Shown here in pieces: positions 6,532 through 10,168 of a DNA stretch of 64,000 nucleotides (position 1 is the stretch's first letter; every line of letters starts with the position of its first letter). The stretch is from Lysinibacillus sp. Its GTDB lineage: Bacteria > Bacillota > Bacilli > Bacillales_A > Planococcaceae. Made by a program: the position numbers and the translations under genes. Below the pieces are notes generated by a model. That model saw only the letters and a list, made by a program, of their open reading frames with translations, was not told the origin of the DNA and made no database searches. The DNA is taken from contig JBJEFO010000128.1 of the NCBI GenBank assembly GCA_051874135.1, forward strand, positions 807-64,806. Direction: 5' to 3'.

Positions 6532-6939
<408 letters not shown>

Positions 6940-6947
6940 TTACTTAA

Positions 6948-7313
6948 TTATTTTTTCTTGTTCGCTACAGTCTTACGAGGACCTTTACGCGTACGCGCAT
7001 TGTTCTTCGTATTTTGACCACGAACTGGTAAACCACGACGGTGACGGATACCACGGAATGAAGCGATTTCCATTAAACGTTTGATGTTTAAAGAAATTTC
7101 ACGACGTAGGTCACCTTCTGTTTTGTATGAATCTAATTGTTCACGGATTAGGTTTAATTGATCTTCAGAAAGATCGCGTACACGGATATTTTCGTCAATA
7201 CCAGCTGCCGCTAATACTTTTTGAGAAGTAGTTTTACCAATACCGTAAATGTAAGTTAATGAAATTACAACGCGTTTATCGCGAGGAATATCAACACCAG
7301 CAATACGTGCCAT
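6948..7313 (-). CDS. rpsM: 30S ribosomal protein S13
   Basis: [28 protein letters not shown]. Confidence 0.99.
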
Positions 7314-7336
7314 TTAGCAGTGCACCTCCTTGTTTA

Positions 7337-7450
<114 letters not shown>

Positions 7451-7487
7451 CTAACCTAACCTCCTTAGTAGTCCGGAGTGCAAAAGA

Positions 7488-7706
7488 TTATTTAAAACGG
7501 TATGTGATACGACCGCGAGTTAAATCATAAGGAGATAACTCGATAGTAACCTTATCTCCCGGTAGGATACGGATAAAGTGCATACGAATCTTTCCAGATA
7601 CGTGTGCGAGCACAGTGTGCCCATTTTCTAATTCTACCTTAAACATCGCGTTTGGCAAAGTCTCAACAACTGTCCCTTCGACTTCAATTACATCATCTTT
7701 CGCCAT
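7488..7706 (-). CDS. infA: Translation initiation factor IF-1
   Basis: [11 protein letters not shown]...GRITYRFK. Confidence 0.99.
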
Positions 7707-7712
7707 CAATCA

Positions 7713-8137
7713 TAAACTCCCTTCTATATGCAATTTCTGATTCTCCTGAGAACCGAAGCAACTGTTTTCTTCTATGAAGAAGCAACTCGTCGTCTCAACA
7801 TATGTTTGGATTGTATGAGAGATGTTCGAAAGACGCTCGTCTGGTTTCGCTTCACACAATCCACGGAATGAACAGATCCGGTTAAGGAAGCTGTATTCCT
7901 TAATGTTAACACGATAGCCGGAATGTCTAGGATGAGAGATTTATACCCACCCATTTACACAGATGCTTCCACGAAACCCATTATACCCTTTTCCGAAGCA
8001 TCATCACACCGTAGTGCTCAAATTCGTCCATAAAGTATATACCGGGCACAATATGCTTTTGCAACTCTCAAAAAATTAGTTTTTCTGTTGCCTCCACAAA
8101 ACCTTCGCGGAAGCATTTAAACGCGCCCGGTCAGGTA
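7713..8137 (-). ncRNA. Candidate structured RNA element in the adk-infA spacer
   Basis: At least 8 helices whose non-Watson-Crick positions are mostly G-U on the minus strand; see findings. Confidence 0.45.
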
Positions 8138-8806
<669 letters not shown>

Positions 8807-8872
8807 CTATTAACAAAAACTTATCTATTTTTAGCTGGATTAAGGAAACAAAAGCGTTTCCCTAAACCTGCA

Positions 8873-10168
8873 TTATTTCATAAAGCCTTTATAATGACGT
8901 TTTACTAGTTGCGATTCCAGTTGTTTCATTGTCTCTAAAGCTACACCAACTACGATAATTAAACTAGTACCACCGATCTGCACAGAAGCAGGAAGGTTCA
9001 TAAAGTTAATAAACAGAATTGGGATAACAGAGATTACAACAAGGAACAATGCTCCTACAAATGTTAAACGGTAAAGAACTTTTGTTAAATAAGTTTGCGT
9101 ATCATTACCAGGACGAATACCTGGAATGTATGCACCTTGTTTTTTCAAGTTGTCAGCCACATTTTCCGGATTCACTTGGATGAATGCATAGAAGTATGTG
9201 AATGCAATGATCAATGCGACATAGATTATCAAACCAATAGGTTTTGTATAATCAAACGTATTTGTAATCCATGTTGTTATGTCATTTTGACCAAAGAATG
9301 TAGCAAGAGTTTGAGGGGTTACGATGAACGCTACTGCAAAGATTACCGGAATAACCCCAGCAGCATTTACTTTTAACGGTAAGTGCGTTTGTTGTCCACC
9401 TACGACTTGACCACGACCAGCAACTCGTTTTGCATATTGAATTGGGATTTTACGTAACGCTTGTTGTACGTAAATTACACCAACAATAATAGCTAATAGC
9501 ACTAAAACTAAAAGAACTAAGATTACACTGTTAATAAATAACTGGTCACCAGCACCTTCAATTTTTTGTGCATATACTTGGTTTACTGCATTTGGAATCG
9601 CAGCTACGATACCAGCGAAGATAATGATTGAAATACCATTACCTACACCATGTGCAGTAATTTGTTCAGCTAACCATAAAAGGAATGAAGTACCTGCTGT
9701 AAGTACAATAGCAATTGTTAAATACGATCCAATACTAGTATCCGTAATCAATGATCCACCATAGAACTGGTTAAACCCGAACGACATCGCGAAAGATTGA
9801 ATAAATGCTAACACAATCGTAAAGTAACGTGTGAATTGAGCGAGTTTACGTCGCCCTACTTCACCTTGCTTTGCCCACTCTGCAAACTTCGGTACAACGT
9901 CCATTTGCAATAACTGAACAATGATTGAGGCTGTGATGTACGGCATAATCCCCATCGCAAAGATAGAGAAATTAGACAGTGCACCACCGCCAAATGTATC
10001 GAGGAAGCCAACAAGATTAAACTCGTCAGTTGCCTTTAATACATTAGCGTCAACGTTTGGTACCGGGATGAAAGTCCCGATACGATAAACGATTAACATT
10101 ATAAGGGTAAAGATGATTTTATTTCGTATATCTCGAACGCGCATAAAGTTAGAGATCGTCTGAAACAT
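8873..10168 (-). CDS. secY: Preprotein translocase subunit SecY
   Basis: SIFAMGIMPYITASII, GVGNGISIIIF, IPGIRPG, GGTSLIIVVGV. Confidence 0.99.
   Translation of the reverse strand: MFQTISNFMRVRDIRNKIIFTLIMLIVYRIGTFIPVPNVDANVLKATDEFNLVGFLDTFGGGALSNFSIFAMGIMPYITASIIVQLLQMDVVPKFAEWAKQGEVGRRKLAQFTRYFTIVLAFIQSFAMSFGFNQFYGGSLITDTSIGSYLTIAIVLTAGTSFLLWLAEQITAHGVGNGISIIIFAGIVAAIPNAVNQVYAQKIEGAGDQLFINSVILVLLVLVLLAIIVGVIYVQQALRKIPIQYAKRVAGRGQVVGGQQTHLPLKVNAAGVIPVIFAVAFIVTPQTLATFFGQNDITTWITNTFDYTKPIGLIIYVALIIAFTYFYAFIQVNPENVADNLKKQGAYIPGIRPGNDTQTYLTKVLYRLTFVGALFLVVISVIPILFINFMNLPASVQIGGTSLIIVVGVALETMKQLESQLVKRHYKGFMK

Follow-up and report, generated by a model that had tools for sequence, protein, structure and literature searches.

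In this study, we find that the spacer between adk and infA in a 64,000-nucleotide stretch of Lysinibacillus sp. DNA (contig JBJEFO010000128.1; hereafter the window) is, as judged from its sequence, the relic of a mapA pseudogene. We think it probable that this is an exapted pseudogene, in which the remains of the dead mapA have been kept for a cis-acting role in the spc-alpha operon, exerted mostly at the RNA level. The gene order on the minus strand is secY (8873-10168), adk (8138-8791), the spacer, infA, rpmJ, rpsM, rpsK and rpoA, which agrees with the initial annotation in placing the spacer upstream of infA-rpmJ-rpsM-rpsK-rpoA. On this strand infA ends at 7488, and because of the comparison across genomes the ATG at 7706 is taken as its true start; the spacer therefore runs from 7707 to 8137 and is 431 nt long. 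The mechanical ORF call puts the infA start at a TTG one codon upstream (window 7707-7709). Spacer positions are numbered on the mRNA strand, position p corresponding to window 8138-p. The features referred to below are the following:

7707-8137, minus strand: the adk-infA spacer of 431 nt, the whole of the mapA relic, from ORFs and co-linear tblastn hits
8037-8076, minus strand: block A, made up of a T-run, then GAGAGYTGCAAAAGCA, then GCCCGGTATA, 70-100% identical across Planococcaceae
8038-8067, minus strand: remnant of Map motif 1, the core of block A, from tblastn alignments
7977-8046, minus strand: long hairpin, at the base of which CCCGG.UAUAU (3' end of block A) pairs with GUAUA.AUGGG (TATAAT region)
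8004-8009, minus strand: weak -35-like box, GTGTGA, 18 nt from TATAAT in the window
7980-7985, minus strand: TATAAT, candidate sigma-A -10 box and 3' strand of the long-hairpin base
7955-7988, minus strand: block B, GGTATAATGGGTTTCGTGGAAGCATCTGTGTAA, nearly invariant, remnant of Map motif 2
7930-7952, minus strand: small hairpin GGGU...AUCC after block B, 88% paired, with 2 pairs changed on both sides
7877-7922, minus strand: UCCGG/CCGGA hairpin with a variable inner stem (UUAAGGAA/UUCCUUAA in the window)
7793-7868, minus strand: block C, made up of the remnant of Map motif 3 (KPDERLSNISHTIQTYVE), a 12-bp stem and the conserved AUCUCUCAU
7863-7807, minus strand: the 12-bp stem in block C, with an inner CGAAA/UUUCG hairpin
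7739-7782, minus strand: variable stretch of lineage-specific small hairpins, identity about 0.25 between genera
7714-7734, minus strand: block D, UGCAUAUAGAAGGGAG, with the infA Shine-Dalgarno (SD) sequence at 7721-7717

At the other end of the spacer, a GC-rich palindromic hairpin of the CCCGGnnCCGGG type follows the adk stop codon (window 8126-8137) in most genera; its homologues have no U-tract, and in Psychrobacillus and Chryseomicrobium they close a larger loop.

The adk-infA interval is 293-458 nt long within the Planococcaceae; outside the family its length is 810-1070 nt, and an intact map, of 246-250 aa, lies in it. With the intact Map of the cluster as query, tblastn gives co-linear hits in the Planococcaceae spacers to three motifs, namely motif 1 (ELQKHIVPGI, Map residues about 25-34, spacer about 71-100), motif 2 (KGYNGFRGSIC, residues 57-69, spacer about 147-182) and motif 3 (KPDERLSNISHTIQTYVE, residues about 136-155 within a hit over residues 124-163, spacer about 285-340). 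The three stand in their original order but in different frames, with stops between them. The alignments span Map residues about 21-174 with large gaps and contain no match past about residue 174; the region of residues 80-120 is deleted or unrecognisable. About half of map is gone from the spacer, including the catalytic middle and the C-terminal half, and the Map alignments found nothing of the catalytic metal-binding half of the pita-bread fold in it. There is no uninterrupted Map ORF of about 248 aa in the window spacer, which has stops in all frames. As a null for the similarity, 430 dinucleotide-shuffled spacers were compared with five Map queries and reached at most 20.4 bits; all 43 of the 43 representative spacers scored 22-57 bits. 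A six-frame Map search of the window's own genome also recovers the relic (E 1.2e-4). It is because of the co-linear hits, the shuffled-spacer null and this six-frame search that we assign the spacer to mapA. The initial annotation had pointed out that the corresponding interval of B. subtilis holds map, and the adk-infA region of that organism does still contain map (and ybzG); what had been missed is that the spacer itself is the remnant of map. The relic resembles the mapA of the Bacillus spc-alpha cluster (secY-adk-map-(ybzG)-infA) in position, strand and three co-linear motifs with up to 26 of 30 nt in common, this highest figure being that of the motif 1 remnant against the corresponding codons of an intact map (L027). 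It differs in having no intact frame, in having lost the catalytic part and with it about half of the gene, and in that the remaining pieces are frozen at the nucleotide level.

The sole intact type I map of the window's genome lies elsewhere (G000:C105:19776-20510; locus L150:1486-2244, minus strand). It encodes 252 aa, matches TIGR00500 at 299 bits and is 36% identical to the cluster-type Map; this paralogue presumably made the loss of the cluster copy tolerable. The least decayed relics are those of Paenisporosarcina L102 and L133 (tblastn 52-57 bits), which may be useful for dating the pseudogenisation. Outside the Planococcaceae, a KOW-domain (ybzG-like) gene of 108-126 aa precedes infA in two genomes, beside map in L025 and without map in L030; no trace of such a gene was found in the Planococcaceae spacers.

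The relic occurs in every genus of the family that was sampled. The spacer was alignable in 23 of the 24 Planococcaceae genomes of a first sample, and in a wider Planococcaceae sample 119 of 121 genomes, representing 21 of 21 genera, yielded a relic match; the two exceptions are fragmented assemblies of 78% and 91% completeness. Among the matches listed, four genera (g3, g12, g13 and g36) have short matches only, located at the infA-proximal end and, in three of the four, also covering a piece of one block. An exact spacer 24-mer that contains TATAAT occurs in at least 119 species, the genera represented among the matches listed being Lysinibacillus, Solibacillus, Planococcus, Planomicrobium, Psychrobacillus, Paenisporosarcina, Viridibacillus, Caryophanon, Chryseomicrobium, Tetzosporium and Metaplanococcus. 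The nearest named relatives of the window are Lysinibacillus sp. 3P01SB and L. odysseyi, in which the spacer is about 90% identical. Parts of the relic have been lost in single lineages, as in L026, which is without block C, and L023, which is without the 3' half of block B.

Two observations concern the provenance of this sequence. A record labelled Micromonospora provocatoris B-183 (L053, NZ_JBDPNO010000003.1) carries the exact 24-mer together with an adk-relic-infA locus of the Lysinibacillus type and is evidently mislabelled or contaminated. Several studies of bovine and gut metatranscriptomes include runs with sequence near-identical to window 6900-9300, along with Planococcus-type variants of the same locus in those samples; the source organism seems to be a common Lysinibacillus-like bacterium of the animal gut or manure.

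Conservation within the spacer is strongly uneven. When the identity of representatives to the window was measured where the 4-fold sites of adk and infA stand, close to saturation, at 0.40-0.55, block A (spacer 62-100) remained at 0.70-0.90, block B (spacer 150-183) at 0.94-0.97, block C (spacer 270-345) at 0.5-0.8 and the SD block D at about 0.76, and the stretches between blocks (spacer 101-149 and 346-403) were at about 0.25, which equals random. These identities lead us to describe the relic as constrained blocks set in unconstrained filler, not as a uniformly conserved RNA. The single conserved structured RNA of about 430 nt that had been proposed for this interval was accordingly not borne out: four invariant blocks alternate with freely drifting stretches. 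The invariant blocks are fixed at all three codon positions, and by the measure just given they are shown to be under purifying selection across the Planococcaceae. A search for the blocks as a repeated regulatory motif found them in single copy in the genome.

Between the blocks, pairing is retained where sequence is not. Separate folds were computed in 37 species for the part that begins at the end of block A and extends just beyond TATAAT, and the long hairpin recurs in most of them. Its apical part is 61-98 nt long across the Planococcaceae and of unrelated sequence between genera; in 24 unselected genomes its base shows 93% pairing. Covariation of the upper stem is seen in three clades, with C-G/U-A/U-G and G-C/A-U/G-U changes in Planococcus, C-G/U-A and U-A/C-G changes in the L. 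sphaericus group, and C-G/U-A, G-C/A-U and A-U/G-C changes in the window's own group. The covariation score in the three clades exceeded 300 of 300 column shuffles and six of six slid controls, these controls being without phylogeny correction. RNAalifold on representatives gave 4 and 3 pairs of this hairpin changed on both sides; relative to the whole predicted fold, two-sided changes affect 4 of 28 pairs, all four of them in the 6-pair upper stem. Psychrobacillus and Paenisporosarcina taken alone gave no significant covariation in the long hairpin because they are too uniform. In the UCCGG/CCGGA hairpin, family-level RNAalifold revealed exchanges of C-G with G-C and of G-C with U-A, covariation of the inner stem is found within the clade of the window, and 65-78% pairing was obtained in a MAFFT alignment of 24 genomes. 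The 12-bp stem of block C keeps 90% pairing across 24 unselected genomes, and one of its pairs is exchanged between U-A and C-G; it is broken in Psychrobacillus, and in Planococcus another covarying hairpin, CCGC/GCGG, is found instead. The small hairpins of 7739-7782 covary within Paenisporosarcina and are 68-73% paired in the 24-genome alignment.

Not all of the predicted helices share this behaviour. Those named in the initial annotation are all present in the minus-strand sequence where it had placed them, and two of them are not conserved. The closing stem of the multi-branch domain at 8041-8131 loses its partner in Planococcus with no compensation, its 3' strand changing repeatedly while the 5' strand stays constant, and in Paenisporosarcina the 5' strand is missing. 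The gatgcttc/gaagcatc stem (7962-8002) is 53% paired in 24 unselected genomes and competes with the conserved base of the long hairpin. The expectation that homologues would covary thus held for the hairpins at 8046-7977 and 7922-7877, where the alignments show covariation to be present, and failed for the 8041-8131 stem.

As to overall stability, the minus strand of the spacer has a minimum free energy (MFE) of -131.8 kcal/mol; 100 dinucleotide shuffles gave -110.3 +/- 6.1, and none was as good (z -3.53). The plus strand gave z -1.29. In ten other species the sense strand ranged from z -0.6 to -4.2 (mean about -2.4), and the antisense strand stood at about -0.9. The excess of structure and its strand bias are real but moderate, and they recur in diverged relatives. 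Because of the many G-U pairs and the strand-specific z-scores we attribute the structure to the mRNA strand, in line with the earlier suggestion of selection at the RNA level and with the better-than-shuffled folding that had been anticipated. A cmscan of window 7300-8500 against Rfam 15, on both strands and with E up to 10, found no family match, Alpha_RBS and the other ribosomal-protein leaders included; it returned four chance-level hits of 14-17 bits against cut-offs of 40-89. No description of this adk-infA element was found in the literature, and the proposal of an undescribed element is upheld to that extent. The terminator scan found no GC-rich stem with a U-tract within 7707-8137, again as the initial annotation had remarked. 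None of the three outcomes that it had named as speaking against its candidate (folding at shuffle level, no covariation, a hit in Rfam) was encountered.

It is necessary to consider how far the conservation could be explained by a promoter. TATAAT is the most conserved hexamer of the spacer region, intact in 22 of 24 unselected genomes (L015, with TGTTAT, and L019 lack it), and stands 274 nt before infA. At its position intact map genes have GGn-TAC-AAC (Gly-Tyr-Asn codons), and TATAAT therefore arose in the relic. It was correctly recognised at 7980-7985 on the minus strand and was wrongly assigned to a loop, since it forms part of the base of the covarying hairpin. In most clades a -35-like box, rTGCAw, precedes it by exactly 17 nt, and the 17 intervening bases vary. 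One could thus suppose that the blocks are DNA signals only (TATAAT, the weak -35 and a T-rich upstream element, perhaps with an operator covering +1 to +25), the rest being a decaying pseudogene with incidental hairpins. Such an explanation has in its favour the near-invariant, perfect TATAAT at a fixed distance of 17 nt from an rTG-type box across variable bases, the T-run upstream of block A, which resembles an UP element, and the case of L024, in which TATAAT is kept although its RNA pairing partner has diverged. It also agrees with B. subtilis, in which the infA...rplQ unit is reported to start upstream of infA (PMC4495994). We nevertheless regard it as unlikely. The -35-like box matches TTGACA at just 3 of 6 positions and was not called by the consensus scan. 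Its bases form the 3' strand of the covarying inner helix in Planococcus, Paenisporosarcina and Psychrobacillus, and the stretch between the boxes covaries with upstream sequence as an RNA helix in three clades and with many G-U pairs, so that selection on DNA signals would not suffice. Moreover, L019 has lost TATAAT and yet keeps the pairing by compensation, and the folding z-scores are specific to the sense strand. Another candidate promoter, TTGCAA-17-TATATA of block A, was rejected for a poor -10 that is not conserved. RNA data came from 12 metatranscriptome runs that contain this stretch, in the form of assembled Logan contigs. In one RNA library a contig of 1452 nt extends from rpmJ across infA and the spacer into adk and is weak evidence for transcription through the spacer. 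Contig breaks at 7984-7989 fall at the edge of a block common to the Planococcus sequence in the same samples and for that reason say nothing on a start site. An internal sigma-A start site for infA-rpmJ-rpsM-rpsK-rpoA-rplQ within the relic is plausible from these motifs, alongside an RNA role.

The invariance of the blocks raises a different possibility, namely a leader of the switch type in which alternative block pairings (A with B, B with the 5' half of C, the 5' half with the 3' half of C, and CUCUC of the C 3' half with the infA SD) would switch the translation of infA and of the genes coupled to it downstream under the control of a ribosomal protein or IF1. The four form a chain of mutually exclusive pairings, and in 24 unselected genomes the paired fraction is 92-98% for each of them, as it is for the inter-block pairings 5' part of A with 3' part of B, GGGUUUCGU/GCGAAACC and CUCUC with the SD. 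In the MFE fold of many species the middle domain is closed by GGGUUUCGU/GCGAAACC, which is reduced to a simple hairpin in the shortest variants. However, the partners are all invariant and hence show no covariation, and because both sides never vary the pairing frequencies prove nothing. RNAalifold of the whole spacer across the Planococcaceae returned only long-range pairs between invariant blocks, with no two-sided changes, and an extended duplex of blocks A and B was not better than shuffled blocks, 6-42% of shuffles being as stable. For 12 species the infA SD has a predicted accessibility of 0.47, compared with 0.42 when the upstream sequence is shuffled, so that no consistent sequestration emerges, and in the window the SD is predicted to be more open than with shuffled upstream sequence. 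In Planococcus the anti-SD contains a mismatch and the 12-bp stem is absent, L026 has block B without block C, and the blocks show no rRNA mimicry, local alignment of blocks A-D with the 16S and 23S rRNA of a same-genus genome being no better than that of shuffled blocks. Taken with these points, a switch seems to us improbable, somewhat more so than a promoter acting by itself. That the relic still encodes a small protein or a truncated Map-like peptide is very hard to sustain. Some species do have open frames of 100-126 aa across it; in Paenisporosarcina a 106-aa ORF runs through two motifs in the Map frame (L102) and a frame of 88 aa is open (L133), and frames without a stop between block B and block C are more frequent than expected. 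Against this, the longest sense ORF in the window spacer is 60 aa, the one Planococcus copy checked (L043) has no sense ORF of at least 40 aa, and in 10 of 22 copies from Planococcus the reading path from block B to block C is closed. From clade to clade the frames, start codons and SD sequences change, the lengths of indels inside a clade are not divisible by three, the blocks show no variation at any codon position and the catalytic half of Map is deleted; a conserved protein is unlikely. A conserved small ORF or leader peptide, including the invariant 8-codon ATG...TAA in block B, was tried and rejected, as there is no conserved SD, the frames disagree and no codon position varies. Finally, the least credible explanation is that the spacer is a neutral leftover, a pseudogene not yet deleted. 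Its length does vary between 293 and 458 nt, and large parts of it drift at or beyond the synonymous rate, but the blocks lie far above 4-fold-site conservation across 21 genera, a rate comparison that contradicts neutrality, and the hairpins covary.

Returning to the exapted pseudogene, which we favour, the following course of events may be proposed. The cluster mapA would have died in the ancestor of the Planococcaceae, with the second type I map elsewhere covering its function. About half of the gene would then have been deleted and the rest retained through a cis-acting role in the spc-alpha ribosomal operon. The read-through transcript from adk is predicted to fold into the long hairpin, whose base would be contributed by two invariant blocks including TATAAT, and further hairpins would follow it, the sequence between blocks drifting while the pairing is kept. 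In this form the relic would comprise at least two selected RNA hairpins, four invariant blocks and probably an internal promoter. As for what the RNA may do, we tentatively place first a binding platform for a protein encoded downstream, and hence autogenous control, because the combination of invariant nucleotides, variable covarying stems and a range of one family resembles the autoregulatory sites of ribosomal proteins. A determinant of RNase processing or stability that uncouples adk from the infA unit follows close behind in likelihood, and within this division of roles a promoter function only is given a small share, the remainder falling to some other role or to none. In its specific form, the idea that the invariant blocks bind S13, S11, L17, L36 or IF1 and so bring infA-rpsM-rpsK-rpoA-rplQ under autogenous control as a family-specific regulatory RNA is possible but still rather doubtful.

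Several known systems offer points of comparison. Autoregulatory sites of ribosomal proteins include the S4 site of the E. coli alpha operon (Rfam Alpha_RBS) and the S7 site between rpsL and rpsG, and in Firmicutes there are the L10, L13, L19, L20 and L21 leaders. The relic is like ribosomal-protein leaders in being a structured, phylogenetically narrow RNA upstream of translation genes in which invariant nucleotides are combined with variable covarying stems. It is unlike them in having no covariance-model match, in lying before infA and not rpsM, in being much longer (300-450 nt) and in its derivation from a dead gene, and its binding protein is only putative. Regulatory RNAs born from pseudogenes are represented by enterobacterial sRNAs from decayed phage or pseudogene sequence and by eukaryotic pseudogene lncRNAs, with which the relic has in common that the remains of a protein-coding gene would have taken on a non-coding function. 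In contrast to the bacterial sRNAs of this origin, which are young, short and trans-acting, the relic is old, family-wide and structured and would act in cis in an essential operon. Few bacterial cases have been documented in which a dead gene was turned into a promoter region or a structured RNA that is conserved. With the internal promoter of B. subtilis infA the relic shares the start of an infA...rplQ unit inside the S10-spc-alpha cluster (PMC4495994). It differs in its weak -35 and in that its start is a candidate. In B. subtilis, moreover, map and ybzG are still present at this place. The kind of element, a structured leader with an internal promoter in a ribosomal operon, is known; what is new is how large it is, that it lies before infA and that its birth from a dead enzyme gene can be traced.

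In Lysinibacillus, Solibacillus, Planococcus, Psychrobacillus and their relatives, annotation should label the interval a map pseudogene or a regulatory region. The origin of a cis element can be read here directly, as the three Map motifs are still visible and TATAAT can be traced to TAC-AAC codons. If the relic is indeed an autogenous site, it would represent a class of ribosomal-protein leader whose birth from a protein-coding gene is traceable. The regulation of infA and of the alpha operon (S13, S11, RNA polymerase alpha, L17) in Firmicutes is poorly known, and the mapA relic of the Planococcaceae provides a concrete, conserved candidate for it.
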